64,000 bases of DNA from Minisyncoccia bacterium (lineage in GTDB: Bacteria; Patescibacteriota; Minisyncoccia; Phycocordibacterales; UBA918), in NCBI GenBank assembly GCA_047639355.1, contig JBLIOC010000001.1:3215-67214 (forward strand), written 5' to 3'. Both the position numbers and the translations under genes were made by a program. Shown here one piece after another: positions 6,817 through 22,948 of this stretch; position 1 is the stretch's first letter; the number at the start of each line of letters is the position of its first letter. The notes beneath the pieces are model-generated. The model saw nothing but the letters and a program-made list of their open reading frames with translations, did no database searches and had not been told where the DNA came from.

Positions 6817-6900
6817 GATTCCATCAATACTAAGACCGCGTACTACTATAAATTGAATTCTACCTTTGTACACCGTAATTTATTCGGGTAGCTTCTATAA

Positions 6901-6928
6901 TTGCGAATAAGCAGTTTATCAGTATAAT
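6901..6928 (+). promoter_or_regulatory. Candidate sigma-70 promoter upstream of uvrA
   Basis: TTGCGA, a 16-nt spacer, then TATAAT. It lies 24 nt upstream of the GTG start at 6952. Confidence 0.35.
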
Positions 6929-6951
6929 GACCACTAAATCTTCATCACCAT

Positions 6952-9645
6952 GTGGAGAGGCAAAGTAGTGTGAAATCGCTACTAATTCAAACGAAAGAAC
7001 TTATGTCAACATCAAAAAAGAAACCAATAACTGCATGGGAAGAGCCGTCAGGTGCTGAGGCACCCAAGATTATTGTTCGTGGTGCCAGGACTCATAATCT
7101 CAAAAATATTGATGTTGAGATGCCTCGCGGAAAAATGATAGCTATTACCGGCCCGTCAGGCTCTGGAAAGTCATCACTTGCCTTCGATACTATTTTCGCT
7201 GAGGGTCAACGTCGATATGTTGAGTCTCTCTCACCCTATGCCAGACAATTTTTGAATAAAATGCAAAAACCTGATGTTGATGAAATTTCAGGTCTTTCGC
7301 CAGCAATATCAATTGATCAAAAGTCTGCTTCTCGAAACCCTCGTTCTACAGTCGCTACAATTACAGAAATTTACGACTACCTACGTATTGTTTATGCCAG
7401 GATCGGACAACCGTACTGTTTAGATGTTGATGTACCAATCCAAAAGCTATCCCAAGATGAAATCCTAGGTATAATTTTAAAATCAATTGAGGACAAAGAA
7501 GTAAAAAAGGCAAAAAAACAGCAGTCAGAAAGTGTGTTAGGAATAGAACTATCAAAGGGTAGGGTTTCAATATTTTCACCTGTCGTAGTTGGCCGGAAGG
7601 GTGAGTATTATCAGATGCTCTATGATTTGCTAAACAAGGGCTACGAGGCAGTAAAAATTGACGGTAATATAAAGCAATTAAGAGAGAAAATTGTTTTAAC
7701 AAAGACTAAACGGCATGATATAGATGTACTGGTTGATGAAATATACGTAAGTGAGTTTATTAACGACCCAAAAGGTTCACGTGAACGATTGTCGGAAGCT
7801 GTTGAATTGGCTTTGGCTGAATCAAAAGGCCTTGTAAAAATTGAAAGTCCTGATGGCGCAGAGAGAACTCTTTCCGCAAAATTTATTTGCCCAATTGACG
7901 GTTCATCTTTTCCTGAAGTTGAACCTAGATTGTTTTCCTTCAATTCACCGTACGGAGCCTGTCCTGAGTGTAACGGACTTGGAGTTATAGGTATTTTTCA
8001 AAGCGATGAATGTCCAAAATGTGAAGGAGCCAGACTACGTTCTGAGGCCCTTAGGGTATATCTAGGTGGAGATGATGAACATCTTGGCACGAACATTGTT
8101 GATTTTACTCGAATGACGGTTGGCCAAGCCGCTGATTTTGTTTCTGGACTAAAGCTTTCAAAAAAAGATCATGACATAGCTTGGCCAGCTTTGCGGGAAG
8201 TTATTGAGCGTCTTGATTTTATGAAAGATGTTGGAATTGAATACCTAACTCTTGATCGTCGAGCAAATACTTTATCTGGCGGGGAAGCGCAGCGAATTAG
8301 ACTAGCTTCACAGCTGGGTTCTGGTTTAGTGGGTGCGCTGTATGTTCTTGACGAACCAACCATTGGTCTTCATCAGCGAGACAATGACAAGTTAGTTAAA
8401 ACTCTATTAGAACTGCGAGATCTAGGAAATACTATCATCGTTGTAGAACACGATGAGGACACTATTCATGCTGCTGATTATCTAATTGATATCGGACCAG
8501 GAGCTGGTGTACGCGGAGGCGAGGTTATAGTGGCTGACTACATGCAAAAACTTTTGTCTGAGAAAACGAATACTTCTGGTTCTGTCACTCTTGATTATCT
8601 TCGTGGTGACAAAAAAATTGCAGTGCCTGAGCGTCGCACTAGTGAAAAAGGGAAGATTAAAATAACTGGAGGAAAGGCTTTTAACATTAAAAATCTTAAC
8701 GTTGATATTCCACTTGGTCGGCTGATTTGTGTGACGGGCGTGTCAGGCTCTGGCAAGTCTACCTTTATGTACGAAATCCTAGACAGAAACTTGAAAGCTA
8801 GATTGGAAAAACGTCATCGTACAGCTAAGACATATAATTGTAAATCTATTACGGGCACGGAGTATCTAGGTCGGTCGGTGCTGATTAATCAGTCACCGAT
8901 TGGTCGCACTCCACGAAGTAATCCAGCTACGTACACCGGTGCCTTTACACATATTCGTGATTTATTTGCGGCCACAAGTGAAGCTAAAGCGCGGGGTTGG
9001 AAGCCGGGAAGATTTAGTTTCAATGTTAAAGGTGGACGCTGTGAAGCCTGTCAAGGAAATGGAGTCATTGCGGTGGAGATGCATTTTTTACCAACCGTCT
9101 ATGTTACATGTGATATTTGTGACGGCAGTCGTTTTACAAATGAAACACTAGAGGTGACTTTTAGAAAAAAGAATATTTATGAAGTTCTTCATTTAACTAT
9201 AGAAGATGCTCACAAATTTTTTGTTGATATACCAGCTATTCAAGAAAGATTAAAAGCAATGCTTGATGTTGGTTTAGGTTATCTAGAGCTAGGTCAAAGC
9301 GCCACCACTCTATCGGGAGGTGAAGCGCAGCGTGTAAAAATTGCTTCTGAACTGTATCGACCGCACACCCAAAAAACAATTTACCTTCTTGATGAGCCAA
9401 CTATTGGCTTACACTATGAAGACGTAAAAAAGCTTATTGAAATTTTACAGAAACTTGTGAATGCGGGGAATACTGTCATGGTTATTGAACACAATCTGGA
9501 TTTAGTCAAAAGCGCAGATTATATTATTGATATTGGTCCCGAAGGAGGACAAAAGGGCGGTCAAGTTGTAGCAAAAGGTACTCCTGAAGAAGTTGCTGAT
9601 AATCCTAAGTCATATACTGGAGCTTACCTTAAAAAAGTTCTCTGA
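6952..9645 (+). CDS. uvrA: Excinuclease ABC subunit A (UvrA)
   Basis: Two ABC ATPase modules ([22 protein letters not shown], two LSGGEAQR signatures). Zn-finger cysteines are present ([16 protein letters not shown]). The frame opens at GTG 6952; an alternative ATG start is at 7003 (MSTSKKK). Confidence 0.93.
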
Positions 9646-9684
9646 TTGACCAGCTTTCTATAAAAAGAAGTTTAAAATACTTAA

Positions 9685-10920
9685 ATGAATAAGTCTGATC
9701 TAGCAAGAAAAAAATTGCCTGACAAACCAGGTGTCTACTTCTTTCTTGGTACAAGAAAGAAAATTCTTTACATCGGAAAAGCAACTTCACTTATGAATCG
9801 TGTGCGTAGCTATTTTACGAGTGATATTAAAGAGAAACGATCCTCCTTGATTGAAAAAATGGTGCTAGAGGCAAAGACCATTGAGTACACAAAAACTGAC
9901 AGTGTTTTGGAAGCCTTAATTCTTGAGACTAATCTCATACGTACACATAAGCCCTTTTATAATACGCGAAGTAAAGATGATAAAAGTTACAATCATTTAA
10001 TTATTACAAATGAGGGATTTCCTAGAGTATTAGTGGTGAGGGGTAAGGATTTGACTGAGCAGTTTGTGGAGTCAGCTATTAAATATCACTTTGGGCCGTT
10101 TCCAAGCGGTCAATTATTTCGTGAAGCTTTAAAAATAGTTCGTAAATTATTTCAATTTTATGACACTAAAGCCCCAATTGGTGAAGAGAAAAATAAGATG
10201 GCCAAAGGAAAGATTGATTTTAATCGGCAGATCGGCCTTTATCCAGAAAAACAATCAAAGCGTGAATACAACAAGACAATTCGACACTTGCGACTATTTT
10301 TTGAAGGGAAGAAGCACCAGCTTATTAAAGAGCTAGAAATGGAGATGGTCACTTTGGCCAACGTCGAAAAATTTGAAGCTGCTAATGTGATAAAGCAACG
10401 TATATTTGCTCTTAATCATATACAAGATATTGCCCTTATAAAAGATGAATCTCGAGTCTACCGTGATGAGAAACGTGTGCGGATTGAAGCCTATGATATT
10501 GCCCACCTTCAAGGTGAAGACATGGTTGGAGTAATGACTGTTCTTGAAAGTGGGGAACCTGTCAAAAGTGAGTATCGTAAATTTAAAATTGGAAACTTCA
10601 CTAAAGCCAATGATACAGGCGCTCTAAAGGAAGTTCTCAGTCGAAGACTGAAGCACGAAGAATGGCCAATGCCACAAATTATAGTTGTGGATGGTGGTGC
10701 GGCCCAAAAGAATGCAGCTCAGCTTATTTTGAGCCAAAAAAATATGGTGATTCCGGTTGTGGCTGTCGTCAAAGACGATCGTCATAAACCAGTCCGCCTA
10801 ATCGGTCAAAAAATAATTCTCGAATTGCATAAACATTCCATTTTGTTAGCTAACGCTGAGTCACACCGTTTTGCTGTTAACTATCATCGAACTAAGAGAA
10901 GTAAGCATTTACGTGCATAA
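9685..10920 (+). CDS. uvrC: Compact UvrC (GIY-YIG, UVR and RNase H-like endonuclease domains; no C-terminal HhH2)
   Basis: GIY-YIG N-terminus (GVYFFLGTRKKILYIGKA). UVR-type helix (VTLANVEKFEAANVIKQRIFAL). C-terminal nuclease domain (RIEAYDIAHLQGEDMVGV ... VVDGGAAQ). It is 411 aa against about 600 in canonical UvrC. Confidence 0.8.
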   Translation: MNKSDLARKKLPDKPGVYFFLGTRKKILYIGKATSLMNRVRSYFTSDIKEKRSSLIEKMVLEAKTIEYTKTDSVLEALILETNLIRTHKPFYNTRSKDDKSYNHLIITNEGFPRVLVVRGKDLTEQFVESAIKYHFGPFPSGQLFREALKIVRKLFQFYDTKAPIGEEKNKMAKGKIDFNRQIGLYPEKQSKREYNKTIRHLRLFFEGKKHQLIKELEMEMVTLANVEKFEAANVIKQRIFALNHIQDIALIKDESRVYRDEKRVRIEAYDIAHLQGEDMVGVMTVLESGEPVKSEYRKFKIGNFTKANDTGALKEVLSRRLKHEEWPMPQIIVVDGGAAQKNAAQLILSQKNMVIPVVAVVKDDRHKPVRLIGQKIILELHKHSILLANAESHRFAVNYHRTKRSKHLRA

Positions 10921-11211
10921 CCTTTTAATTCTAAACAACTGACACACTATTATTCAAACAATAATCATCTCTTGAGAAGTTCAAGCAAAATCTTGATTTG
11001 CTTAAGTGGTCTATTCGGCAAATAATAAGTCCGGGATTACATTAGTGGAATATGCACACCATACCCCAAACCTTACTTAATGAACGTGGTATCATTATTA
11101 ATGATAGTTTGCTTATTAACAGTAGTTATTTACTATCTTATAGATCCTACCGATATAATTCTGCTCTATATATTCTCGCCGTATTAAACTTTTATTAAAT
11201 CAGCTCCAGTC

Positions 11212-12480
11212 ATGTTCTTCATTGCCGTATTAAACAAATCTAAAATGCTTAAAATTCACACAAAATTTTGTTACCTAGCAATCATTTCAATACTAACGGT
11301 TTTATTCTTTGCAGCTAGTCTTTCATTCATCAACACAGCTAATGCTGGTTCTGCAGACAGTCTGACTGGCTACGCCTGGAGTGATAATATTGGCTGGATA
11401 AGCTTCAATGATACAAATAATTCTGGAACGGTCAATTACGGTGTTGATGTTGCTACCGGGTCGGGTTTATTCTCTGGCTACGCCTGGAGTGATAATATTG
11501 GCTGGATATCCTTTTGGCCTGGTGACGTAATTGGTTGCCCCTCTGGTCCCGGTACTTGTAACCCTACTCTTGACTGGAACACTGGTGTAATTACCGGCTG
11601 GGCTCGTGCTTGTGCTGGAACTGCAGACGCGGCCTGTGCACTTACCTCTTCCCGAACAGACGGCTGGGACGGCTGGATTAGTCTTTCTGGAGTAGCTACC
11701 GATTCTTCAGCTTCAACGTATGGAGTTCTTGTTAATGTTACCACTGGTGCTTTTTCTGGACAAGCTTGGGGTAGCACCAATGTTGGTTGGATTTCGTTTT
11801 CAGGTACAGAAGGTACAGGATGGGGTGTTGATGGTATTCTCCCCCCTGCATCTGCAACCCTTAGTTCAGATCCAGTACCCGGCTGCATCATTCCGAATGG
11901 TGATAGTACTTGCCCTGTAGATTTAACCTGGAGTATACTATTCTCAAGTGACACAAGTGTATACAATTTCTCGCTTGGTACCACAATCTCAACCGTTGCT
12001 GCTGGTACAGAACCTTCTTACCCACTAAACCCTGGAGTAAACGTTATTGAAGCTCGAGACGGTAGTAATATCCTCAGGACTATTACTCCTACTGCTGGCT
12101 GTTCCACACCACTCGATTTCTGGGACAGTGCTGAGTGTGGTACTATACCTACTCTAGATATTACTCCCAGTCTGTCTGCTGGCTCTCAGATAATTAGATC
12201 TGGTGAATCAGCTGATGTAGAAATTGTCATTATTTCAGATTACAATTTAACTTGTCAACTGAATGGAGCAGAAATAACTCCTGTCGATCTTACTTACGAT
12301 TCTGCAACTAGTGAAATCAGAAATAGTTCAAATAGCGCCATACCTGCTACTGGTTACCCTACAAGACAACTTTATTCTAAGCAAGCTATTTCCATTGTTT
12401 GTACAGTCGACGCAGACCCAACTATCTCACTTTCAGGTGAATACATTATTGAGGTGATTGGTACCGTACAGGAGATTTAG
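11212..12480 (+). CDS. Secreted tandem-repeat protein (four GxAWSxNxGWISF repeats plus an Ig-like C-terminal region)
   Basis: Signal peptide with probable cleavage at TANA/GS; the probable start is at the internal Met near 11245. Four repeats of (G)YAWSDNIGWISF / GQAWGSTNVGWISF. An exact 35-nt DNA repeat occurs at 11366-11400 and 11474-11508. Confidence 0.6.
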   Translation: MFFIAVLNKSKMLKIHTKFCYLAIISILTVLFFAASLSFINTANAGSADSLTGYAWSDNIGWISFNDTNNSGTVNYGVDVATGSGLFSGYAWSDNIGWISFWPGDVIGCPSGPGTCNPTLDWNTGVITGWARACAGTADAACALTSSRTDGWDGWISLSGVATDSSASTYGVLVNVTTGAFSGQAWGSTNVGWISFSGTEGTGWGVDGILPPASATLSSDPVPGCIIPNGDSTCPVDLTWSILFSSDTSVYNFSLGTTISTVAAGTEPSYPLNPGVNVIEARDGSNILRTITPTAGCSTPLDFWDSAECGTIPTLDITPSLSAGSQIIRSGESADVEIVIISDYNLTCQLNGAEITPVDLTYDSATSEIRNSSNSAIPATGYPTRQLYSKQAISIVCTVDADPTISLSGEYIIEVIGTVQEI

Positions 12481-12515
12481 AGAAGAGTGATGCACATCAT
12501 GTTAAAATTCTCAGT

Positions 12516-13478
12516 ATGAACAATAAAAGGGTAGCGGTTCTACGTGGTGGTCCAAGTGAAGAGTATTCCGTATCTCTCAAGTCAGGAACAGCTGTTTTGA
12601 ATGCTCTGAAAGAACTTGATTATCCACACAAAGATATAGTTATAACCAAAAAAGGAGAGTGGTTAGAAAATGGTGTGGTGCGAAAACCAGAAATAGCACT
12701 AGAGGCTGTCGACGTAGTTTTTGTTGCTCTACATGGACATTATGGAGAAGACGGGCAGGTTCAACGAATTTTAGAGCGTAAAAATATTCCTTTTACTGGT
12801 AGCCGATCTCTTTCTTCTGCTATCGCCTTTAACAAAGAGCTAACCAAACGTACTCTTATGTCTCATAACATAAGTATGCCACGCCATCGTCGTATGGACC
12901 GTGTGGAACTGGATAGATTAGATGAAGAAATTCCTAACATTTTCTCTGAGTTGGGAAGTGAGTTATTTGTAAAGCCGTTAGATAGCGGTTCGTCTGTAGG
13001 AGCAAGATATGCCCCTAACGAGGAGACTCTGCGAATGGTTCTTGCTGAATTGCTCGAAAACTATGACCAGGTTTTAATAGAGCAATTTATTCGAGGCCGC
13101 GAAGCAACAGTTGGAGTTTTGGATAACTTTAGAAACGAACCAACTTATATATTACCCGTTATAGAAATTATTCCACCTGGTGGAGAACCTTTATTTTCGT
13201 TTGAAAATAAATACAACGGAAAAACTGAAGAGATTGTACCAGGTCGGTTTTCTTATAGAGAAAAGGCTATGTTGTCAGAAGCGGCGGCCACAATTCATAA
13301 AGTCATTGATTGTAAAAGTTATTCACGTAGTGATTTTATTGTTCGTGATGGCGAGATTTACTTCCTTGAAGTGAACACTTTGCCTGGTCTGACTCCGGAA
13401 TCACTTTTTCCGAAAGCGGCTGCAGCGATAGGTCTACAGTTTCCACATCTGATTCAACACTTAGTAGAAAACGCGTAG
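12516..13478 (+). CDS. ddl: D-alanine--D-alanine ligase
   Basis: N-terminal VAVLRGGPSEEYSVSLKSG, plus LHGHYGEDGQVQ and the ATP-grasp C-terminal E..N motif (FLEVNTLPGLT). Confidence 0.9.
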   Translation: MNNKRVAVLRGGPSEEYSVSLKSGTAVLNALKELDYPHKDIVITKKGEWLENGVVRKPEIALEAVDVVFVALHGHYGEDGQVQRILERKNIPFTGSRSLSSAIAFNKELTKRTLMSHNISMPRHRRMDRVELDRLDEEIPNIFSELGSELFVKPLDSGSSVGARYAPNEETLRMVLAELLENYDQVLIEQFIRGREATVGVLDNFRNEPTYILPVIEIIPPGGEPLFSFENKYNGKTEEIVPGRFSYREKAMLSEAAATIHKVIDCKSYSRSDFIVRDGEIYFLEVNTLPGLTPESLFPKAAAAIGLQFPHLIQHLVENA

Positions 13479-13488
13479 TTAAAAAACC

Positions 13489-13517
13489 TTGACTTCAAGA
13501 CCTGTTCACCTTATTAT
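13489..13517 (+). promoter_or_regulatory. Candidate sigma-70 promoter (TTGACT-17-TATTAT) about 100 nt upstream of tRNA-Ala
   Basis: Near-consensus -35 and -10 elements with a 17-nt spacer. Confidence 0.35.
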
Positions 13518-13618: not shown

Positions 13619-13691
13619 GGGCTCGTAGCTCATCTGGTAGAGCGCCTCATTTGCACTGAGGAGGTAGCGGGTTCAAGTCCTGTCGAGTCCA
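13619..13691 (+). tRNA. tRNA-Ala (anticodon TGC)
   Basis: Cloverleaf by eye: acceptor stem GGGCTCG/CGAGTCC with a G3:U70 wobble (the Ala identity element). D-arm GCTC-ATCTGGTA-GAGC. Anticodon arm CCTCA-TTTGCAC-TGAGG, giving TGC. T-arm GCGGG-TTCAAGT-CCTGT. Discriminator A; no encoded CCA. Confidence 0.9.
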
Positions 13692-13696
13692 CAATA

Positions 13697-13721
13697 AAAC
13701 AGCCCTCAGGGGCTGTTTTTG
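13697..13721 (+). terminator. Rho-independent terminator after tRNA-Ala
   Basis: Hairpin CAGCCC-tcag-GGGCTG followed by TTTTTG. Confidence 0.7.
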
Positions 13722-13856
13722 TGTGTGGACTCGAAGAAGAGTGCCTGCGCACTCTTCGGCAGGACTTGAACGCCGGAGTGCTGTGAGTCTGCGAACAAGT
13801 GAGGTGTGTCCCGCGGCAACTGCTAGTTTGTGACTGTAGGGAAACGAAATAGCTTG

Positions 13857-13885
13857 GTGACCGTCAGGACAAGTCCTGTCGAGTC
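13857..13885. repeat. Direct repeat of the tRNA-Ala 3' end (copy 1), a putative att-like scar
   Basis: The 16 nt CAAGTCCTGTCGAGTC at 13870-13885 are identical to tRNA positions 13674-13689. Flanking gtgaccgtcaggac resembles copy 2. Confidence 0.6.
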
Positions 13886-13955
13886 TCAAATTGACAATAA
13901 TATTTAGAGGTGGTATTTTCTGTTTAGTTATAGCAATCACTGAGGAGGTGTAGAA

Positions 13956-14180
13956 ATGAAAGATATTAAAATTGTATGGGTGTTACAGGGGATACTTATA
14001 GGTTTTATGATAGGTATTATCTTAATTACTATCAAATCTTACGTGTTCCATTCTGGAATAAGCTCAATATTAACACCTCCATATGGAGAAAATGTGCTTT
14101 TACTTATATCTCAAATACTGATGGCGGCATATTATTATCCACGTGTGTGTCGATTTAAGAGTCGTATAGCAATGTATTAG
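13956..14180 (+). CDS. Small hypothetical membrane protein (74 aa)
   Basis: Single hydrophobic helix. Its first 15 nt (atgaaagatattaaa) are identical to the start of the thioredoxin-like gene at 14803. It is followed by a terminator. It could be a remnant. Confidence 0.35.
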   Translation: MKDIKIVWVLQGILIGFMIGIILITIKSYVFHSGISSILTPPYGENVLLLISQILMAAYYYPRVCRFKSRIAMY

Positions 14181-14197
14181 CTGTAACAGAGTACGCA

Positions 14198-14223
14198 GAA
14201 AAGCTCCCAAGGGAGCTTTTTTT
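14198..14223. terminator. Bidirectional intrinsic terminator
   Basis: AAAAGCTCCC-aa-GGGAGCTTTTTTTT, with an A-tract and a T-tract, between convergent small ORFs. Confidence 0.6.
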
Positions 14224-14411
14224 ATAAGTATCCTAACATCACTGAATAATACTTGCGATCAAGAATATAAAAATTAGTCAGATTAATGCACGTCTGGAAA
14301 GGTCGGTAACAAAAACAAAGACCCAGAAGAGAATCTCCTGGGTCAGTCAATTAAAATCTTGTCTCGCTTTTTTTGCAATAGTCACACAAGTAGTTATATT
14401 AAAGTTTTTTC

Positions 14412-14654
14412 TTAACTTTTTTTGAAAATCATCATAGCTTGGCTCTTTGTAGGTTGCGACAACTTCACCCAAGAGTTTAGTACTTCTGCTTTCTTTCCAG
14501 TGCTTCCACCACGACGTTCACCATGACTTCTCTTTGAAGCAGTTTTTCTATTATTGATCTTTCGGTAAGTCTTAATTATCTCTCCAAGTTCTTGCAACTT
14601 AGGAACTTTTTTGTACACGCACCTCTCCTTTGAGATATGGTTCAAATACTCCAT
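14412..14654 (-). CDS. Small basic hypothetical protein (80 aa)
   Basis: Lys/Arg-rich ORF. Its start abuts tRNA-like repeat copy 2. No recognisable domain. Confidence 0.35.
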   Translation of the reverse strand: MEYLNHISKERCVYKKVPKLQELGEIIKTYRKINNRKTASKRSHGERRGGSTGKKAEVLNSWVKLSQPTKSQAMMIFKKS

Positions 14655-14657
14655 TAG

Positions 14658-14686
14658 TGGCCGTCAAAACAATCCTGTCGAGATGA
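14658..14686. repeat. Direct repeat of the tRNA-Ala 3' end (copy 2, degenerate)
   Basis: gtggccgtcaaaacaatcctgtcgag shares TCCTGTCGAG with the tRNA and the ccgtca...acaa...tcctgtcgag frame with copy 1. Confidence 0.5.
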
Positions 14687-14802
14687 TTTGTAGTAACTCA
14701 TTAATGTTTGATTTAGCTTTGTTTCTACAATTGGGCACAATTCGCAAATACGGACTAGTCAACTGATATAATAAAGTTATATTATTAAACGTGTAGGTTT
14801 AT

Positions 14803-15069
14803 ATGAAAGATATTAAATTAGAAGAAGTATCATCTCCTGGCTGTTCTCACTGTGCAGCTTTCAAGGAGTATTGGGAAGGTGAAGCTATAAACTGGCCCAA
14901 CGTTACCTTTAGAGAGTTGAGTCTCGTGGATCCTGAGGGGCAAGAAATGGTCCAGAAACACCAGATATTTGCTTCTCCAGGCATTATTATTAATGGGGAA
15001 TTGTTTGCTACCGGAGGTGTAGACAAGATCGCCTTCAAGAAGAAACTTCAAGAACTTTCAGAAGAATAA
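14803..15069 (+). CDS. Small thioredoxin/glutaredoxin-fold protein with a CxxC motif
   Basis: 88 aa with SSPGCSHCAAF (CxxC) near the N-terminus. It lies immediately upstream of the CcdA-MCO fusion. Confidence 0.7.
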   Translation: MKDIKLEEVSSPGCSHCAAFKEYWEGEAINWPNVTFRELSLVDPEGQEMVQKHQIFASPGIIINGELFATGGVDKIAFKKKLQELSEE

Positions 15070-15072
15070 AAT

Positions 15073-18000
15073 ATGATTGATACAAAGTCCCCAGCTCCTT
15101 CTACAACTCCAACATCAAAGTCAGCTCGATCTTGGCTTATTATGGCAGCGGTGGGTGTTTTTGCAGCTATTGCTTTCGGTGTTTTATACCTATTCGTTCT
15201 AGCCCCATCCATTCCCGACGGAAATATTGGATGGTTTTTGTTTTCATTTGCGACAGGTCTTACGATGATCGTTATGCCGTGCACACTTCCACTGGCATTT
15301 GTAATCGTTCCTCTGTCTATGGGAAAGGGTCTTATTCGCGGTATCGGAATGTCTCTTGCATTCGGTCTTGGTATAGCTGTCACTCTTTCTCTTTATGGAG
15401 TAGCGGCAGCTCTTCTTGGAGGTGTAGCTATCGACGCTCTTGGTGCTGATCTTGATTCAATTAAAAACTGGGTCTATACAGTCGCTGGTGTCTTTGCTCT
15501 CGTTTTTGCATTGAGTGAAATTGGTTTGATGAATTTTCATATGCCCACATACAAGGGTGCAGCTCCGGCTTCGATACAGAAGCATGGAGAGTTGATAAAA
15601 GCTTTTATGTTGGGGCTTTTCCTTGGAAATGTTGGAGTAGGATGTCCTCATCCAGCTACTCCACTTATTTTGATAGAAATCGCTTCAAGTGGTGACGTGT
15701 TATACGGATGGCTTCTATTCCTGACTCATGCAATCGGCCGAATACTACCGTTGCTTCTATTAGCATTTATGGCAATCATTGGTGTAAATGGACTCAACTG
15801 GCTAATGTCCCGAAAGGATGCTGTTGAACGAACAACCGGCTGGGCAATGGTTTTCGTAGCAGGCTTTATTCTTACTCTAGGATTGTTCTCTCACGATTGG
15901 TGGGTCAATTCTGGAATTCACAGCGGACTTGAGACACTTACGCAAGAAGCTAGGTTCAACGCGCTTATAAACGAAACGCTTGATACCAATGTAGCTCACG
16001 CGCACGGATTAGAAGAAGGGGCTGGTCTATTTGGGTTACCTCTGGAGTGGGGTAATTGGTTCTTAGTGACGGTTTGGCTATTGCCAATGTGGTTATGGTA
16101 TAGAAAAAAGAAGAAGGACATTGAAGAAGGAGCTGACTTGTGTCAGGAAAAAGTCTTAAAGATAAAGAGAAATTTCCTTATTGTGATTGCTATATTTATC
16201 ATAATGATATTCACGCACTTTTTACCACAGAATTTTTACCTGAATTCTATTAGTGGTGGTGGTCACGGTGAAACGACTAGCCACGATGGTGCTGACGGCC
16301 ATCATGATGAAGGTGCATCAGCTAACCCTGACGGTATCCATGCAATGCCAGACGGCACAATCATGAATGCTAATGGAGACGTGCTAAAAGGTGGACATCT
16401 AATGCCGGACGGCACAATCATGCTTGCAGACGGAACGACGATAGGAGGTACTCCTTCGAACATACCTGCAGAAGCAACGCTGTATGGAGTTGATGTAGAA
16501 GATCTTCCGTTTGCTAACGTCCCTGAGACAGTAGAATTGGTAGATGGTGATAGTTATGATATCACTGCATTCTATGTACAGAAAGAGATAGGGAACAGAA
16601 CACTTCGTATGCTCGCATACAACGGCTCGGTTCCTGGACCCTTTATTAAGGCTCCGCAAGGAGCTGAGGTGACAATCAACTTTACGAACAACACAGACTT
16701 GGACCAAACCATCCACTCACACGGTCTACGATTAGACAACAACTTTGATGGAGTACCTGGTGTAACCCAGAATGTTGTTAAGCCTGGAAATTCACACTCT
16801 TATACTATTAAGTTTGAAGATGCCGGGGTTTATTGGTATCACCCACACACTCGTGATGATTACGGACAGGAAATGGGTCTGTACGGTAACTATATTGTAG
16901 AACCAATTGATGGTTACACATCACCAGTTAATCGACAAATTCCACTGGTTATTGATGACATTCTCATTGAGAACGACAAGATCTTTGACTTCTATAAAGA
17001 AATTACAAATTTTGCTTTACTTGGTCGATTCGGAAACGAATATTTGGTAAACGGTGAACAGGATTACTCACTCGAACTAGAGAAAGGTGAAGTTGTAAGG
17101 TTCTTGGTTACAAATGTTTCAAATGCAAGATCGTACAGTCTGTCGCTGCCAGGCGCGGAAATGAAAATGGTCGGTGCTGACATTGGACACTACGAGCGAG
17201 AGGAATTTGCAGAAGATTTCTTGATTTCGCCTTCTGAGAGAATGATTGTAGAAGCTTACTTCAAAGAATCGGGTACTTATTCTTTGACTCACACCACTCC
17301 GGACGGTGAGGTCGTACTTACTGAGTTTGTGGTTGGAGAAGAGTCAGTAGATGAATCATATGCTGAAGAATTCGACATTCTAAACGAAAACCAAGACGTA
17401 ATAGAAGAGTTCAGCACTTTCCGATCATATATTAGTAAAGACGCAGATAAGAAGCTATTACTTACTGTTGACCTAGAAGGACAGGTAGATCATAGTGCCC
17501 ACGGACATGCTACTGATGATGCTGCAGTGGATCCATATGCTGGTATTCATGCAATGCCTAACGGTGACGTTATGCTCGGATCTGGAGAAGTTATAACAGG
17601 TGCTACCGTAATGGATGACGGTACGATTGTCCTTGCTGACGGTACTGTTCCTGGCGCTCCACCTGTTCCAAAGACAAGACTTGAATCACTACAATGGAAT
17701 GACGAAACAATGTCCGACAAGGTAAACACTTCAGAGAATGTTACTTGGAAGATGATCGATGAAGAGACAGGAGCAAGCAGTATGATGATTCCAATAGCTG
17801 ACTGGACTTTCGTAGAGGGAGACATTGTCAAGATCCGATTAACTAATGATTCAACAGCCGATCATGTAATGCAACATCCAATCCACCTACACGGACAACA
17901 ATTTGTTGTTCTGACTGAAAATGGAGAGATTAATGACAATATGGCATGGAAGGACACTGTATTAGTATTCCCTGGTGAAGTCGTTGAAATATTAGTAGAC

Positions 18001-18834
18001 ATGAGCAACTTAGGGGAGTGGATGAGCCACTGTCATATTTCTGAGCACTTGCATGCCGGGATGATGATGCAATTTAGGGTAGAAGATGAATCTGGTTATG
18101 CAACAGGAGATGAATTCAGGTCTACTGTAACGGCTGGAATGGTTCACAAATCAAACGCTCCTACTATAAAGAAAAGCTCACGAGAATTTACCTTTGAGTC
18201 GGAAACTTCATCATTTGGCTACACAGTTTATGCTGAAAAAACCAGGTTCAAAGTAGGTGAAAAACAAGAGATCACACTGACTTTGTTTGATCCTGAGTTA
18301 AATGGTGTTGTGTTGTCTGAGAAGTATCCCGACCCACTTGGAATAACATTTGTGAAGAGTAATAATACTCAGAACTTTTACACTTACCCTGGGAACACAA
18401 CCTTCGATGCCGTCGATCATGGAGGATCAGCTCACGACAATAGTGATGGGCATCACAACGACACGATAGCTCCCTCATCAGAGCCGGTACATGACAACAG
18501 TGACGGGCATCATGGGTTTAATCTAATACCTACAGCTCACGCGCACGGCGGCACAGATGATGGTCACGCAGATGCTACTGGTCAAGTTTACACTTATACT
18601 GTGCCTGTAGCCTTCCCGGAAATTGGTGCGTACAAAGCCTTTGTTGAATTCGTGCCAGAAGGTGTAGATAAGCCGATTATTTTGAGTATGGATATAGAAG
18701 TGATCTCCTCGAACTTCTCAGTAGACAACTATGGTTGGAGCGTAAGTATGAAGTGGTGGATATTACTCATAGCCTCCCTGATCCTGACTGTACCTTTGGT
18801 GATCGGAGTTCGTAAGTACATTAACGTTAAATAA
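15073..18834 (+). CDS. Giant fusion of a CcdA/DsbD-like thiol-disulfide transporter TM domain with a multicopper oxidase, His/Met-rich Cu-binding repeats and a C-terminal TM anchor
   Basis: The N-terminal ~340 aa are polytopic with CcdA-type Cys motifs (IVMPCTLPLAF; GVGCPHPATPL). Multicopper oxidase motifs present: HSHGLR, WYHPHT, HPIHLHGQQF, HCHISEHLHAGMMM. Repeated GIHAMP(D/N)G..M and DNSDGHH segments. Final TM WWILLIASLILTVPLVIGV. Confidence 0.8.
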   Translation: MIDTKSPAPSTTPTSKSARSWLIMAAVGVFAAIAFGVLYLFVLAPSIPDGNIGWFLFSFATGLTMIVMPCTLPLAFVIVPLSMGKGLIRGIGMSLAFGLGIAVTLSLYGVAAALLGGVAIDALGADLDSIKNWVYTVAGVFALVFALSEIGLMNFHMPTYKGAAPASIQKHGELIKAFMLGLFLGNVGVGCPHPATPLILIEIASSGDVLYGWLLFLTHAIGRILPLLLLAFMAIIGVNGLNWLMSRKDAVERTTGWAMVFVAGFILTLGLFSHDWWVNSGIHSGLETLTQEARFNALINETLDTNVAHAHGLEEGAGLFGLPLEWGNWFLVTVWLLPMWLWYRKKKKDIEEGADLCQEKVLKIKRNFLIVIAIFIIMIFTHFLPQNFYLNSISGGGHGETTSHDGADGHHDEGASANPDGIHAMPDGTIMNANGDVLKGGHLMPDGTIMLADGTTIGGTPSNIPAEATLYGVDVEDLPFANVPETVELVDGDSYDITAFYVQKEIGNRTLRMLAYNGSVPGPFIKAPQGAEVTINFTNNTDLDQTIHSHGLRLDNNFDGVPGVTQNVVKPGNSHSYTIKFEDAGVYWYHPHTRDDYGQEMGLYGNYIVEPIDGYTSPVNRQIPLVIDDILIENDKIFDFYKEITNFALLGRFGNEYLVNGEQDYSLELEKGEVVRFLVTNVSNARSYSLSLPGAEMKMVGADIGHYEREEFAEDFLISPSERMIVEAYFKESGTYSLTHTTPDGEVVLTEFVVGEESVDESYAEEFDILNENQDVIEEFSTFRSYISKDADKKLLLTVDLEGQVDHSAHGHATDDAAVDPYAGIHAMPNGDVMLGSGEVITGATVMDDGTIVLADGTVPGAPPVPKTRLESLQWNDETMSDKVNTSENVTWKMIDEETGASSMMIPIADWTFVEGDIVKIRLTNDSTADHVMQHPIHLHGQQFVVLTENGEINDNMAWKDTVLVFPGEVVEILVDMSNLGEWMSHCHISEHLHAGMMMQFRVEDESGYATGDEFRSTVTAGMVHKSNAPTIKKSSREFTFESETSSFGYTVYAEKTRFKVGEKQEITLTLFDPELNGVVLSEKYPDPLGITFVKSNNTQNFYTYPGNTTFDAVDHGGSAHDNSDGHHNDTIAPSSEPVHDNSDGHHGFNLIPTAHAHGGTDDGHADATGQVYTYTVPVAFPEIGAYKAFVEFVPEGVDKPIILSMDIEVISSNFSVDNYGWSVSMKWWILLIASLILTVPLVIGVRKYINVK

Positions 18835-18835
18835 T

Positions 18836-19333
18836 ATGAATAAGTTTGCAGTTCTTGGGATCGTACTAGTACTCATCTTAGTTGGTGGGGTAGCTTACAA
18901 GCAGCTTGTCGGTAGTGCTGACGCGCCAGTTGAGACAGGGATAGTGAAAGAATACACAATTATTTCTAAGAAACTTGAGTGGAGATTTGAACCGGAATCT
19001 ATCGAGGTCGAGCAAGGAGACAGAATTATCGCAACAGTTATCAACGAAGATAATTTTGATCACGGTTTTGCTATTGACGCCTTCGGTATTAGTCAAAGAC
19101 TTCCGGCTAACGGGACGATTGTAGTGGAGTTCGTAGCGACTAAGTCTGGAGAGTTTCCTTTCTACTGTTCTGTTTCCTGTAGTAGTAGTGATAACCCCAC
19201 TTTTGATTTACTAAATGGCGAAGTGCAGACTGGTCCATACGCAGGCACATTTCAGGGTCACTTCGAACACGTAGGTAGGTTTGTTGTTAAAATGTTGCTA
19301 ACGGCAGGGATTCTGAACGAAGAAGAAAATTAG
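18836..19333 (+). CDS. Membrane-anchored cupredoxin-like (CuA-type?) protein
   Basis: N-terminal TM helix, beta-rich domain with HGFAIDAFG ... FYCSVSC ... H..M spacing reminiscent of CuA/cupredoxin ligands. Its position in the copper cluster supports the call. Confidence 0.45.
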   Translation: MNKFAVLGIVLVLILVGGVAYKQLVGSADAPVETGIVKEYTIISKKLEWRFEPESIEVEQGDRIIATVINEDNFDHGFAIDAFGISQRLPANGTIVVEFVATKSGEFPFYCSVSCSSSDNPTFDLLNGEVQTGPYAGTFQGHFEHVGRFVVKMLLTAGILNEEEN

Positions 19334-19368
19334 AACAAAGAAGCACATTAAAAATTTATCTATAAAAT

Positions 19369-21729
19369 ATGACAAAACTCGTACTTAAAGTAAAAGGGAT
19401 GCATTGCGCTTCTTGTTCGATACTTATAGACAAATTGCTTAAGAAACAAGAGGGTGTAATTAATTCTGCAACAAGTTACGGAGCTCAGAAAGTAGCTTTA
19501 GAATTTGATGAATCAATAATTACACTTGAAAAAATTGATGAGTTTGTAAACAAGCTTGGTTATGACGTCATCCGACCTGACGAGGACACTGGTTCATTAG
19601 AAGAAGCAGAAGCTGCTGAAGAAAAGGAACGTTTGGTTGCAAAGAAGAGAGTTATTGCTTCGTTTGCAATAGCGTCACCAATCATTGCCTACTACATGGG
19701 TGTTCACATGTTCAACTTACCTCACATTCACCAACTGTGGGGGATTGATCTTAACTACTTCTATTGGGCTCTTTCGACTCCTATTCAATTTGTAATAGGG
19801 TGGACATTCTACAGAAATGCTTGGGCGGCTGTGCGTATTGGCTCTGCTAATATGGACGTACTCGTAGTATTAGGAACTAGTGCTGCTTACTTCTACAGTA
19901 TGATCGGTTTCTTGTGGTTCAACATCGATCATCCTTTCTGGGAGAGTTCCGCCGCACTTATTTCATTTATTCTTCTTGGACGCTACGTGGAAGTAGTGGC
20001 TAAAGGCAAGGCTAGTAGTGCCATCAAGGAACTACTTAAACTTGAAGCAAAGGAAGCTAATGTCATTCGAGATGGCACTGAAGTCACTATCCCACTAAGC
20101 GACCTTGTCGAAGGTGATGTTATTGTAGTGAAGCCGGGAGGTAAGATTCCAGTTGATGGAATTATCGTTGATGGGGAAACTCATATTGATGAAAAGGTTG
20201 TTACAGGTGAATCGTTTCCAGTTAAAAGAGTTAAAGGAGATGAGGTTATTGGAGCAACCGTAAACTTAGAAGGAAGATTTAAATTTAGAGCAACAAAAGT
20301 TGGTAAAGACACACTGCTCAATCAGATCATAACCATGGTTGAGGAAGCTCAAGCTTCACGTGCTCCGGTTCAAGACTTGGTAGATAAGGTAAGTGAGTAC
20401 TTTGTACCCGCTGTAATTGTTATTTCTGTAATTACTTTTGTCGGCTGGGTATTCATTGCAGAACTACCAGTTAGAGCCGGAGTTCTAAGAATGATTGCCG
20501 TATTGGTTATCTCATGCCCGTGCGCCATGGGACTTGCTACACCAACCGCTTTAGTTGTAGGTATTGGACAAGCTGCAAAATATGGAATTATCCTCAAAGG
20601 AGGAGAGGCTTTGGAGAAAGCTTACAAGATTACAGCCATCTGCTTAGATAAAACAGGGACACTAACAATCGGAAAGCCAATCGTTACAGACTTCGTTCTT
20701 GTATCTAAAATGACAGAGTCTGATGCCTCCATTCTCGCAGCGTCAGCTGAAATGGGGTCTGAACACCCACTAGCTCGAGCCGTGATAGAGCATGCAAAGG
20801 ACTTTGGAAAGACTACGGAACCTAAAAACTTCGAAGCTGTTCAAGGTATGGGTCTAAAAGCAACGATAAAACTTAAAGGTAAGGATCATCAGGTTGCAAT
20901 TGGAAATCCTAAGTTTATGGAGAAACTTAAAAAAGACATAACTTCATATAAATCAGAATTAGATAGACTACAATCAGAGGCAAAAACAACTGTATTCCTA
21001 GTTGTAGATGGCAAGATAGTTGCTTTGATAGCAATGGCTGATGCATTAAAGCCTTTTGCAAAAGAAGCAATCACAGCTATGCGTAACATGAACAAGGAGG
21101 TTATCATGATTACTGGTGACAACCAAAAAACGGCTGACGCTATAGCTAAAGAAGTTGGTATTGAGAGGGTGCTTGCAGAAGTATTACCACAAGACAAAGC
21201 AGCAATGGTGAAAAAGTTGCAAAGTGAGGGAATGAATGTTGCGATGGTAGGGGATGGTATAAATGACTCACCAGCGCTAGCTCAGTCGAATCTAGGTATA
21301 GCAATTGGTTCAGGTACAGACGTAGCGATAGAGACTGGAGATGTTGTTCTTGTTAAAGATGACTTAAGAGACGTAGTTACTGCAATACAGCTTTCTAGTA
21401 AGACAATCAAGAAAATTTGGCAGAACTTGTTTTGGGCATTCTTCTACAACGTTGCAGCAATCCCTATTGCAGCTGGTGGTCATTTATTGTTTACTCAAGA
21501 ATCGTTTGGTATTGCAGCTGGGTGGGTGGTAGCTATACAAGATAAGTTTGGTTCAGCTGGACAGATTTTCTTCAACCTTTCACAAGCGACACTACGTCCA
21601 GAAATTGCCGGGTTTGCAATGGCGTTTAGCTCGGTATCAGTGGTTGTAAACTCGATGGTACTGCGGTTGTACACACCACCAATGGAAAAACTATCAAACG
21701 CTCAAGATAAAAAAAAGCAAGTCAAATAA
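19369..21729 (+). CDS. copA: Copper-translocating P1B-type ATPase
   Basis: N-terminal HMA domain (GMHCASCS), TM CPC motif (SCPCAMGLATP), DKTGTLT phosphorylation site, hinge GDGINDSPAL. Confidence 0.93.
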   Translation: MTKLVLKVKGMHCASCSILIDKLLKKQEGVINSATSYGAQKVALEFDESIITLEKIDEFVNKLGYDVIRPDEDTGSLEEAEAAEEKERLVAKKRVIASFAIASPIIAYYMGVHMFNLPHIHQLWGIDLNYFYWALSTPIQFVIGWTFYRNAWAAVRIGSANMDVLVVLGTSAAYFYSMIGFLWFNIDHPFWESSAALISFILLGRYVEVVAKGKASSAIKELLKLEAKEANVIRDGTEVTIPLSDLVEGDVIVVKPGGKIPVDGIIVDGETHIDEKVVTGESFPVKRVKGDEVIGATVNLEGRFKFRATKVGKDTLLNQIITMVEEAQASRAPVQDLVDKVSEYFVPAVIVISVITFVGWVFIAELPVRAGVLRMIAVLVISCPCAMGLATPTALVVGIGQAAKYGIILKGGEALEKAYKITAICLDKTGTLTIGKPIVTDFVLVSKMTESDASILAASAEMGSEHPLARAVIEHAKDFGKTTEPKNFEAVQGMGLKATIKLKGKDHQVAIGNPKFMEKLKKDITSYKSELDRLQSEAKTTVFLVVDGKIVALIAMADALKPFAKEAITAMRNMNKEVIMITGDNQKTADAIAKEVGIERVLAEVLPQDKAAMVKKLQSEGMNVAMVGDGINDSPALAQSNLGIAIGSGTDVAIETGDVVLVKDDLRDVVTAIQLSSKTIKKIWQNLFWAFFYNVAAIPIAAGGHLLFTQESFGIAAGWVVAIQDKFGSAGQIFFNLSQATLRPEIAGFAMAFSSVSVVVNSMVLRLYTPPMEKLSNAQDKKKQVK

Positions 21730-21820
21730 CCTAGCAGATAAGAAGAGTCGCGGACTTATTGTTCTCGGCTCTTTCTGTGTATTGCAATAAAAGACACGCA
21801 ACCAGTGATATACTTACAGT

Positions 21821-22036
21821 ATGCAAAAAATAGAATTAAATATAGAAGGGATGCACTGCGGTGGATGTTCCACAGGAATACAGATGGTTACAGAAATGCT
21901 AGACGGGGTAACTTCATCATTTGTTGATTTAGATGCCAAGAAGGGAACTTTCGAGCTTGATGGAACTGGTGCCAAAGTAGAAGATATTATTGGAGAAATC
22001 ACTAAACTAGGTTACACAGCAACAGTCATTGAGTAA
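21821..22036 (+). CDS. copZ: Copper chaperone, HMA domain
   Basis: 71 aa with the GMHCGGCS metal-binding motif. Confidence 0.85.
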   Translation: MQKIELNIEGMHCGGCSTGIQMVTEMLDGVTSSFVDLDAKKGTFELDGTGAKVEDIIGEITKLGYTATVIE

Positions 22037-22038
22037 TT

Positions 22039-22557: not shown

Positions 22558-22948
22558 TATTACTTTCCCAATACAAATATTTTCCTCAGTAACAGCTCTT
22601 ATTTCTTCTTATGCTTTCCTAATGGCTGTTCTCAACAGGGAACCAAAGACTGTATGGTTAAGAGGCGCGTCATCACTGATGCTCCTTTCTAGCGGTATCT
22701 CATTTGCTCTTTACTATAGTAATTTATTTAGTTCAGACGCATATCTAGCCTTTGGCTCGGCAGCCTTTCTTTTGCTGACAGTATTGATTAGCTTAGGCAT
22801 TGCTGTAGTACACTGGTACGAAATGAGAAGCGATACCCTTAACTATCCACAAAACCTCTTGCTAACCACAAAAGTAGTTGCCGTTACTAGCTTTACAACT
22901 ATTACAATTCACTTACTGCTACAAATCGCATCTCTTGGTTGGGGGTAG
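22550..22948 (+). CDS. Hypothetical membrane protein
   Basis: 132 aa, hydrophobic, overlaps the upstream gene by 8 nt (operonic). Confidence 0.5.
   Translation: MPDITFPIQIFSSVTALISSYAFLMAVLNREPKTVWLRGASSLMLLSSGISFALYYSNLFSSDAYLAFGSAAFLLLTVLISLGIAVVHWYEMRSDTLNYPQNLLLTTKVVAVTSFTTITIHLLLQIASLGWG

Follow-up and report, generated by a model that had tools for sequence, protein, structure and literature searches.

The window analyzed here comprises 64,000 nt of a contig of a Minisyncoccia bacterium, and its sole tRNA gene, a tRNA-Ala(UGC) on the plus strand (13619-13692), is followed by a small folded element that ends in a copy of the 3' tail of that tRNA, here called a tRNA-tail-copy element. 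The tRNA was identified by ARAGORN and by Rfam (tRNA model, 63.3 bits), and carries a G3:U70 pair and an incompletely encoded CCA. A promoter-like site (TTGACT-17-TATTAT; 13489-13517, plus strand) stands upstream of it; the promoter-like sites reported in this work are consensus matches only. The order uvrA, uvrC, ddl, tRNA-Ala(UGC) is conserved widely. The ddl gene of the window is closest to those of Paceibacteria/Nomurabacteria-type Patescibacteria metagenome-assembled genomes, and its multicopper oxidase has been deposited under Candidatus Paceibacteria. The loci and contigs that we fetched for comparison are labeled with L-numbers (L001, L003, and so on). In nearly all fetched Patescibacteria loci (L003-L022) ddl is followed by tRNA-Ala(UGC), with the tRNA on the strand opposite to ddl in L018 and L020-L022. 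Behind the tRNA of the window, reading of the sequence for inverted repeats revealed an intrinsic-terminator-like hairpin, CAGCCC-TCAG-GGGCTG followed by TTTTT (13700-13720, plus strand; stem 13700-13715). It has the GC-rich hairpin and T run of an intrinsic terminator; a simple terminator scan did not flag it. This hairpin is the centre of a larger palindrome (13683-13734), which includes the acceptor 3' strand of the tRNA.

The segment of the tRNA that is copied downstream, X1 (13674-13692, plus strand), runs from C56 to C74 and comprises the 3' half of the T-loop, the T-stem 3' strand, the acceptor 3' strand, A73, and C74. A first-pass annotation of this DNA had pointed out that the 16-mer CAAGTCCTGTCGAGTC, extending from T-loop C56 to acceptor position 71 (13674-13689), recurs exactly at 13870-13885, and this recurrence was confirmed. 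The shorter string TCCTGTCGAG occurs three times in the 64 kb (at 13678, 13874, and 14673) versus 0.10 expected occurrences, and none of 100 shuffled sequences contained it three times. Between both direct copies lies an inverted copy of the tRNA tail, overlooked in the first-pass annotation, in two parts (13724-13734 and 13760-13771), which are separated by a 25-nt segment (13735-13759) containing a 22-nt hairpin (13736-13757). An exact 12-nt repeat, CACTGAGGAGGT, was also seen at 13654-13665, in the anticodon stem/variable region of the tRNA, and at 13938-13949, at the ribosome-binding site of a downstream 74-amino-acid open reading frame (ORF); with roughly 0.08 such repeats expected in 1.6 kb by our estimate, it may be a chance match.

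The inverted and direct copies are parts of one structure, an entire tRNA-tail-copy element of about 165 nt (13724-13888, plus strand), which was recognized by its match to a covariance model, R1, and by its centroid fold. R1 was built from a 14-sequence MAFFT alignment of class I copies, class I being defined by the motifs GAA-N3-CGGA, GAG, and GUGAC together with the helices Pa and Pb, within a family defined in the present analysis. The R1 match (13759-13890) covers the full length of the model with 59.8 bits and an E value of 1.5e-13, and begins 67 nt past the end of tRNA-Ala on the same strand. The element opens with part a of the antisense copy (X'), TGTGGACTCGA (13724-13734), the complement of the acceptor 3' strand and the trailer, of which 13727-13734 can pair with 13879-13886 in the centroid fold. 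Hairpin H1 (13736-13757), with a 9-bp stem and a CTGC loop, is situated at the junction of the acceptor and T parts of the antisense copy, and H1 with compensatory changes was also found in L004, L005, L020-L022, L203, and L206. Part b of the antisense copy, CAGGACTTGAAC (13760-13771), is the complement of the T-loop and the T-stem 3' strand and provides the 5' strand of the closing helix P1, in which 13760-13768 pairs with 13870-13878. The conserved core (13772-13869), assigned by alignment to R1 and by covariation, forms a three-way junction: helix Pa consists of GCC/GG(U), a GGA/GA internal loop, and a hairpin (13772-13805), and helix Pb with its hairpin spans 13808-13870, such that C13870 doubles as the first base of the sense copy. 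The sense copy, X2 (13870-13886), represents tRNA C56-U72 and serves as the 3' strand of P1; it is identical to the tRNA at 16 of 16 positions and then has T versus C72 of the tRNA. X2 breaks off after position 71-72, with a promoter-like site immediately next to it.

The centroid fold of 13722-13895 joins the 5' antisense part to the direct copy (13870-13886) around a GC-rich interior, with a minimum free energy of -65.1 kcal/mol (z -2.5). The window copy shows all features of class I, i.e., the position, the repeat from C56 onward, the antisense segment of P1, and the core motifs, and together with the L004 copy it represents a variant subtype in which GAGGUGUGUCCC replaces GAGGCGGGGUCG. R1 detected no further copy in the window, even with the filters off. 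A search of Rfam 15 placed solely tRNA above threshold, and nothing credible was found over 13724-13888 at E values up to 10. The sub-threshold matches touching the element were permuted tmRNA (13667-13735, 12.7 bits, E 5.7), SNORA74 (13683-13799, 15.4 bits, E 0.32), and an RNAI match that touches it with its last base; all three are far below the gathering score and were read as noise. For canonical copies in L022 the Rfam outcome was the same.

The arrangement is shared by relatives. In L003, L004, and L006, whose ddl genes are 69-74% identical to that of the window, the identical 16-mer occurs twice, 133-198 nt apart, without the copper genes that lie further downstream in the window. L005, L008, L014, and L017 have diverged tRNA-Ala tails, and their downstream copies follow these differences exactly, some with two or three tandem units. 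Since the element is present in relatives without the copper genes, the first repeat is older than the copper insertion and independent of it. The first-pass annotation had interpreted the repeats as the attachment sites (attL/attR) of an integrase-mediated island; this reading is refuted for the first repeat, which belongs to a covarying structure and has the same spacing in relatives without the island. That annotation had itself counted conservation of the repeats in relatives, or their membership in a conserved structured RNA, as grounds against its reading; the first repeat is present in relatives and is part of a conserved, covarying structure. Likewise, its proposed search for an empty site turned out otherwise than it had foreseen, in that relatives without the island keep the first repeat and the element, and the island segment itself is absent.

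The same arrangement was found behind tRNA-Val, -Arg, -Pro, -Ala(CGC), and -Ala(GGC) in the fetched loci, with a common plan that reads, from 5' to 3', a terminator or AT hairpin; an optional complement of the acceptor 3' strand; an optional H1; an antisense segment NNGGAnUCGAA; the core; and the sense copy. The sense copy spans C56 to C74, or starts from G53 in another class, and at least three core classes can be distinguished, the window copy being of class I. The class also differs at the tRNA-Ala locus itself, with class III in L005 and L006 (the latter showing the identical 16-mer as well) and class I in the window, L003, L004, and L008. H1 is present in 33 of 111 copies, most commonly with a CUGC loop. 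We scanned metagenomes with a pattern of the commonest class I variant and obtained at least 120 matches; in 85 of the 120 matches listed a same-strand tRNA lies upstream on the contig, nearly always within about 200 nt, and the tRNAs upstream of the matches listed represent at least 18 amino-acid specificities. Also among the matches listed, X2 is identical at 17 of 17 positions to the tail of the upstream tRNA in 50 of 85 cases, and a same-strand tRNA is located 15-160 nt upstream in 77 of 113 model-aligned copies. A T run is present in 48 of the 77 spacers between tRNA and element. Of the 188 tRNAs found on carrier contigs, 60 have a copy of their tail, perfect or nearly so, no more than 450 nt away. 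No copy was found in 2.9 million viral contigs, a phage collection, and a plasmid collection, and the literature searched holds no description of a tRNA-tail-copy element. In Patescibacteria the family is large, follows tRNA genes of almost all kinds, and has apparently gone undescribed. Among its variants, those of L091, L106, L119, L133, L098, and L127 have a small conserved hairpin (e.g., AAGCGUACUCGC) that splits the tail copy right after CGA, and the L133 copy is located behind a ribosomal L7/L12-like gene with no tRNA upstream.

Structural conservation was evaluated against shuffled sequences and against pairing partners slid by 1-3 columns. The proposed class I structure consists of the closing helix P1, helix Pa with its GGA/GA internal loop, and helix Pb. 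In the 14 MAFFT-aligned class I sequences, 85.9% of cells were paired compared with 67.4% in shuffled sequences, and covariation was 0.575 compared with 0.227 for shuffled and at most 0.137 for slid controls; RNAalifold alone recovered 12 of the proposed pairs, 10 of them with compensatory changes. In 113 model-aligned copies, 89.9% of cells were paired versus 70.8% after shuffling, and covariation was 0.447 versus 0.136 (at most 0.10 for slid controls), although this alignment was fitted to R1 and hence leans toward the model with inflated pairing, a point against the account favored below. The P1 pair opposite the variable T-loop base was AU in 36 copies, UA in 31, and CG in 18, and was unpaired in 5, so that the antisense segment follows each tRNA in sequence. 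P1 contains tandem G.A mismatches, and small hairpins are inserted at helix junctions. Among paired cells, G.U combinations numbered 90 versus 42 for A.C, which fits folding of the tRNA-sense strand, and the orientation of the element is always that of the tRNA. A cluster in L022 has the order tRNA-Val, element, tRNA-Pro, element, tRNA-Ala, tRNA-Arg, and within it neither strand shows a promoter-like site and the tRNA strand shows no terminator-like site. As far as can be judged from sequence, these data favor RNA, transcribed with the tRNA, as the folded form.

Insertion and turnover were suggested by comparison of sites. The tRNA-Pro site is empty in L019, where a trailer beginning CATAGAGG... 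directly follows the tRNA and is succeeded by the next tRNA, and is filled in L021 and L022, where the element follows the tRNA and the same CATAGAGG... trailer comes after X2. The filled tRNA-Pro site has the form of an exact insertion at C74/C75 that duplicates 19 nt. The idea of the first-pass annotation that a duplicated tRNA tail marks an insertion therefore holds in this lineage, as tRNA-Pro shows; that the first repeat of the window borders an island does not hold. Where X2 has CCA, the empty site encodes CCA too, a finding that places the insertion point at C74/C75 in DNA and speaks against copying of X2 from mature tRNA. Related genomes differ as to which tRNAs bear a copy, and tandem, truncated, and fused copies occur. 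Cores are mosaic: in L021 the tRNA-Pro element has its left part in common with the tRNA-Pro element of L022 and its core with a tRNA-Arg element of L020. On the minus strand of L166 (3340-3510 and 4270-4533), two class I cores that are 100% identical end in the tails of different tRNA-Ser genes. Gene conversion between dispersed copies can explain identical or mosaic cores, which are accordingly no proof of transposition. One of the L166 cores follows a complete tRNA-Ser(CGA). The other has the acceptor, D, and anticodon arms of a tRNA-Ser(UGA) fused to it and the 3' tail of the same tRNA at its end, and represents either a gene interrupted in the T-arm region by the element or a deletion product.

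In three metagenome loci, L083, L190, and L186, 1.3-9 kb separates the tRNA from the element. The L083 insert (964-10047) contains a large serine recombinase near a tRNA-Ser, a rolling-circle Rep, an Ltp-like lipoprotein, and a GIY-YIG protein, and that of L190 contains an HNH nuclease and DUF4145. In all three, a decayed copy of the tRNA tail and a terminator lie just before the element, whose X2 matches the tRNA at 18-22 positions. The decayed tRNA fragment before the element means that these inserts are ordinary mobile elements that landed between the tRNA and a pre-existing element, and the element is not to be regarded as an attachment arm of the cargo. Decay of the displaced fragment beside an intact X2 suggests that X2 is maintained.

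We consider it about an even chance that the window copy is an insertion-derived, co-transcribed RNA element, i.e., a selfish or near-neutral tRNA-trailer element, and no island border. The element would be transcribed together with the tRNA, through read-through or within tRNA operons; the sense copy would originate as the duplicated target of an insertion event and would be retained for its role as a strand of the closing helix. Copies would be gained through a trans-acting mechanism, lost via deletion between X1 and X2, multiplied in tandem, and homogenized by gene conversion. Several points weigh against this account. An empty site such as that of L019 would also result from deletion between X1 and X2, which leaves the direction of change unproven, and differences in presence as well as identical cores can be explained by deletion and gene conversion without transposition. 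Between L019 and L022, divergence of the tRNA-Val copies is about 8%, much like that of the spacer next to them, and individual copies may be unconstrained. A strong terminator stands between tRNA and element in the window and in many copies, with no room for a promoter, and hence transcription would need read-through. G.T pairs are tolerated in folded single-stranded DNA, which would show a similar pattern, so that the strand bias is no proof of RNA. Finally, X' and X2 both match more than 30 different tRNAs, a fact that is explained by no mechanism proposed.

A more far-reaching version, that this is a new mobile element, appears unlikely to us. It would be a structured RNA-coding unit of approximately 100-170 nt without a protein gene, homing to the 3' end of essentially any tRNA by means of an antisense segment that pairs with the near-universal T-loop, inserting at C74/C75 with duplication of the tail, leaving the tRNA intact and being transcribed with it, and relying on a trans-acting or host enzyme. 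If true, a naturally programmable RNA-guided insertion system would exist in organisms with very small genomes. If the co-transcribed trailer element is the right reading, Patescibacteria, which have among the smallest genomes known, would bear abundant structured elements after a good part of their tRNA genes, absent from Rfam and from the literature searched. Tail repeats behind tRNA genes in Patescibacteria genomes should then not be taken as island borders, and they will mislead island finders and tRNA annotators. The puzzle is how each copy acquires a sense and an antisense copy of its own tRNA tail, and the answer could reveal a new tRNA-linked RNA function or a new targeting or insertion mechanism. 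For experiments the family offers natural variants by the hundred, sites found both empty and filled in nature, and a core that is compact as well as conserved.

The same observations bear on two other views of a functional element. According to one, the element is a vertically kept, functional non-coding RNA that serves the host by acting on its own tRNA or on tRNA-handling enzymes, whether as a mimic or competitor of the acceptor/T-arm 3' strand, as a module for precursor processing or stability, or as a switch in which X' pairs with X1 or X2. Conservation of location, strand, and core sequence across distant lineages fits this view, as do the ability of X' to pair with the tRNA tail or with X2, the match of X2 to the tRNA while displaced tRNA fragments decay, the extra hairpins at helix junctions that preserve the frame, and the resemblance of the GGA/GA internal loop to a protein-binding tandem G.A motif. 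However, a copy accompanies only about a third of the tRNAs on carrier contigs, and not always the same ones in close relatives; the tRNA-Ala locus is home to more than one core class; copies are often truncated or fused; and their divergence is about that of spacer DNA, all of which makes a host-serving role doubtful. According to the other, X', the core, and X2 rebuild the double-stranded tRNA tail as a folded single-stranded DNA recombination site in the manner of an integron attC or the CTX phage attP hairpin; a recombinase encoded elsewhere would insert small cassettes behind tRNAs, and cargo-free copies would be empty cassettes. The precise insertion with a duplication from the T-loop to the tRNA 3' end, the tandem arrays, the conserved structure, and the one-strand bias agree with this proposal, as do the tail-copy arrays of L025 that separate single genes (an NYN nuclease; a membrane protein) and the bracketing of 0.8 kb with two small ORFs in the window by X2 and X3, the relic copy described below. 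It is nevertheless quite improbable: no recombinase adjoins any array examined; the integron core sites RYYYAAC/GTTRRRY are absent on inspection by eye, made without a dedicated attC model, the window junctions being CTTGAAC and GTTCAAG; the invariant core sequence goes far beyond the needs of a variable attC loop; copies are lacking in the viral, phage, and plasmid sequences searched; GUGAC replaces the tyrosine-recombinase half-site expected to the left of X2; and the large inserts of L083, L190, and L186 are separate elements between tRNA and element. The L025 array itself (11111-12970, behind tRNA-Ala) consists of an element, a fragment, an NYN-domain gene on the minus strand, an element with a truncated tail copy, a membrane-protein gene on the minus strand, and a tail copy, and resembles a cassette array.

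We regard as very unlikely the model of the first-pass annotation, in which serial integrase-mediated integration left attachment-site scars in tRNA-Ala and delivered a copper island, the integrase being lost thereafter. The copper genes do lie in DNA that is absent from the closest relatives, the module also follows tRNA-Ala(UGC) in L203 and L206, and integrase-type elements do use tRNA tails in these organisms, as shown by the serine recombinase adjoining tRNA-Ser in L083. In opposition to this, the first repeat and the whole element occur without the island in L003, L004, L006, and L008; the inserted segment has no tail copy at its distal end; the second repeat derives from the element and not from the tRNA; there is neither a GC shift nor a recombinase remnant; and the module is about as similar to its L203 counterpart (78-90% identity) as are UvrA and UvrC beside it (82% and 69%). 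Chance similarity or an assembly artefact has a practically negligible probability in the face of the shuffle tests, the same arrangement in the independent JGI contig L001, and homologues in many independent assemblies.

Comparison with known systems shows partial likenesses. Islands in tRNA genes (Islander, PMC4383910; tycheposons, bioRxiv 10.1101/2020.12.28.424599) share with the element a duplication from the T-loop to the 3' end, an intact tRNA, the original trailer after the distal copy, and tandem copies. Unlike these islands, the element has just 110-200 nt between copies with no genes and no integrase, its insert carries the reverse complement of the repeat and a covarying core, and its perfect matches extend to over 30 different tRNAs, so that one attP per tRNA would be required. 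In casposons and CRISPR spacer integration, Cas1-type integrases produce long target duplications, often at tRNA 3' ends (PMC4779613, PMC6614799). The fixed-length duplication of the element (19 or 22 nt) at the tRNA 3' end is similar, and repeated insertion at the proximal copy would yield comparable repeat-insert-repeat arrays; however, the element has no Cas1 and no polymerase, no terminal inverted repeats were noticed on reading, the insert is tiny and structured, and target duplication leaves the internal antisense copy unexplained. Integron attC sites and the CTX phage attP hairpin are folded single-stranded recombination sites. In these, as in the element, inverted site copies approximately 100 nt apart fold to rebuild the target duplex, stem structure is conserved over sequence, and one strand is favored, whereas the element lacks integron core motifs and an integrase, has a sequence-conserved three-way junction as its spacer, always follows the orientation of the tRNA, and has copies within tRNA operons. 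The single-strand transposons (insertion sequences, IS) of IS200/IS605 type and their miniature derivatives have 4-5-nt guides, a Y1 transposase, hairpin ends, and strand specificity, and make no target duplication. Hairpin ends, an internal guide that finds the neighboring target through base pairing, and strand specificity are shared, but the complementary stretch of the element is 9-23 nt, its duplication is 19-22 nt, and there is no transposase. As regards miniature inverted-repeat transposable elements and IS in general, filled sites show a 19-nt duplication, and no terminal inverted repeats were noticed on reading the copies, with no systematic search having been made; the inverted repeat of the element is formed by an internal segment versus the flanking target.

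R2 with its non-autonomous derivatives (PMC3414825) and Dada transposons of tRNA and snRNA genes (PMC8869645) resemble the element in their position at RNA genes, a host gene that stays functional, presumed host co-transcription, and non-autonomous structured copies, but they are eukaryotic and need a reverse transcriptase or transposase of their own, whereas no such enzyme is known for the element. Patescibacteria are reported to lack group II introns. Group I introns in that phylum, the subject of the nearest paper found, are longer than the element and self-splicing, and interrupt tRNA anticodon loops at 35/36 (PMC13011429). These introns share with the element the phylum and the association of a structured RNA with tRNA genes; the element differs in following an intact tRNA and in having no group I match in Rfam. 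Non-coding RNAs such as tmRNA, YrlA (bioRxiv 10.1101/312249), and viral tRNA-like structures (PMC7749636) also reuse acceptor/T-arm features of tRNA or derive from tRNA precursors. They mimic the general tRNA shape, whereas the element copies the exact last 19-22 nt of its neighbor tRNA and pairs this copy with an antisense strand, so that T-loop bases become helical. The small RNAs from 3' external transcribed spacers are a further case of tRNA-precursor-derived RNAs.

Other candidates were considered and rejected. For tmRNA or a two-piece tmRNA with a tRNA-Ala-like 3' end, ARAGORN found none in the window, the permuted tmRNA match in Rfam was 12.7-bit noise, and the supposed tag region is a hairpin varying between relatives. 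A tRNA-like minihelix charged by alanyl-tRNA synthetase does not agree with most copies, which have A3-U70 instead of G3:U70, nor with the helix, which continues past the discriminator. A primer-binding site for mature tRNA is contradicted by the antisense copy, which fits the gene and its trailer (CACA) and not CCA. Non-palindromic T-loops (UUCAAGU here) and the covariation of P1 exclude that the antisense segment is a sense T-arm copy. Known ribozymes, including the group I intron, gave no Rfam signal, and a phage or plasmid origin was dismissed in light of the absence of matches in the viral contigs and the phage and plasmid collections.

The second repeat reported in the first-pass annotation, a degraded copy at 14673-14682, is real and extends further than was stated. 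The relic copy X3, GTGGCCGTCAAAACAATCCTGTCGAG (14657-14682, plus strand), found by repeat comparison, matches 23 of 26 positions of 13857-13883, while the best match in 100 random 64-kb sequences was 19. The match takes in the element-specific GTGACCGTCAGGACAAGTCCTGTCGAG, beyond the tRNA part, and contains the non-tRNA bases GTGACCGTCA..AC. Because X3 shares non-tRNA bases with the 3' end of the element, it derives from a second copy of the element and not from the tRNA, and it cannot be regarded as the attR of an island. R1 detected no element core upstream of X3, even with the filters off, and we take X3 for the surviving 3' end of a second element, the body of which has been replaced. Between X2 and X3 on the plus strand (13891-14226) there are a promoter-like site (13891-13919), an ORF for a 74-amino-acid membrane-like product (13956-14180), and a terminator-like hairpin (14199-14220) with a T run; the ORF scan also gave two overlapping small ORFs of 80 and 41 amino acids on the minus strand (14347-14654), resembling one frameshifted gene. 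The 74-amino-acid ORF and these two ORFs had no homologue or family match in Pfam, PHROGs, and the fetched loci. An exact 15-nt repeat, ATGAAAGATATTAAA, lies at 13956-13970 and 14803-14817, at the start of an ORF in both cases and with GTGTAG upstream of both, such that the 74-amino-acid ORF opens with the first five codons of the thioredoxin gene downstream; this repeat points to a recombination scar or duplication junction.

The copper module (14803-22948, plus strand), recognized by domain search and as a conserved block in relatives, consists of seven genes, which encode a thioredoxin-like protein, a DsbD_TM-multicopper oxidase fusion, a cupredoxin, a CopA P-type ATPase, a CopZ-like HMA protein, a DUF2214-like membrane protein, and a 132-amino-acid product, the last two being membrane ORFs. 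The segment of 13.9-23.5 kb, i.e., the module and the 0.8-kb segment before it, is missing at the ddl-tRNA-Ala locus of L003, L004, L006, and L008, and this 9.6-kb insertion stands in place of tRNA-Ala(GGC). In those relatives, the element is followed, often via tRNA-Ala(GGC), by homologues of 23553-24338 (minus strand), 24339-24860, and 24909-28175 (minus strand) onward. Locus comparison placed the right junction of the inserted segment in the non-coding stretch 22949-23552, where the sole tail-like string is a weak CAGGATTCCTCTCGATC at about 23297-23313, and just past which a conserved PMM-like gene starts at 23553 on the minus strand. The extent to 30.2 kb that had been ascribed to the island is thus too large: the inserted segment ends near 23.5 kb, and relatives show synteny for the RND pump genes (24.9-29.7 kb), which belong to the conserved backbone. 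The DUF2214-like ORF (172 amino acids, 22039-22557) is a distant paralogue of the conserved 173-amino-acid ORF (24339-24860) outside the insertion, with 25-31% identity to the relatives' copies.

The delivery of a metal island downstream of the tRNA, as had been proposed, stands insofar as the copper genes lie in a segment absent from relatives, with borders other than those proposed. No tail repeat was found at 22.9-23.6 kb or bracketing the copper module, the copies at 13870 and 14673 both being proximal, and no further att-like copies appeared in the stretch to 30.3 kb that had been suggested for search. A Pfam scan for recombinase-type domains found no integrase, transposase, or reverse transcriptase domain in the window ORFs of at least 140 amino acids or in the small ORFs at 13.9-14.7 kb, in agreement with the first-pass annotation, which had listed no integrase or recombinase. 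The suggested comparison of composition gave no GC step at 13.9 or 23.5 kb, with GC at 0.36-0.44 throughout the window (about 0.40). The region behind tRNA-Ala elements varies between genomes, and no recombinases were found in the variable regions behind tRNA-Ala of L003, L025, and L203. The copper module is separate accessory DNA distal to the elements, in a variable region.

The module is kept as a block in L203, L204, and L205; the short contig L206 has only its first three genes, ending inside the cupredoxin gene. In L206 these genes come after tRNA-Ala(UGC) and two or three elements, whole or truncated. The module of L203 lies behind tRNA-Ala(UGC), three tandem elements, and a desaturase gene, and that of L204 and L205 is at another site, adjoining ATP synthase genes. 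With the module 78-90% identical to that of L203 and the flanking UvrA and UvrC 82% and 69% identical, a recent transfer of the module is possible but not required. The ddl gene of L203 (3179-4150) is 50% identical to that of the window, compared with 69-90% for UvrA, UvrC, and the copper genes, and may be a different paralogue or an exchanged gene. In L204 (1-17700), the module is present twice, inverted around two adenine glycosylase genes, as an inverted duplication or an assembly artefact. Elsewhere in the window, the alanyl-tRNA synthetase (48972-50912, plus strand) is just 646 amino acids long and has catalytic and SAD domains, with no C-terminal C-Ala domain detected. The leucyl-tRNA synthetase (34321-37170, plus strand; 949 amino acids) carries a NUDIX hydrolase domain (residues 381-517, E 5.6e-13) beside its editing domain, which is an unusual fusion.

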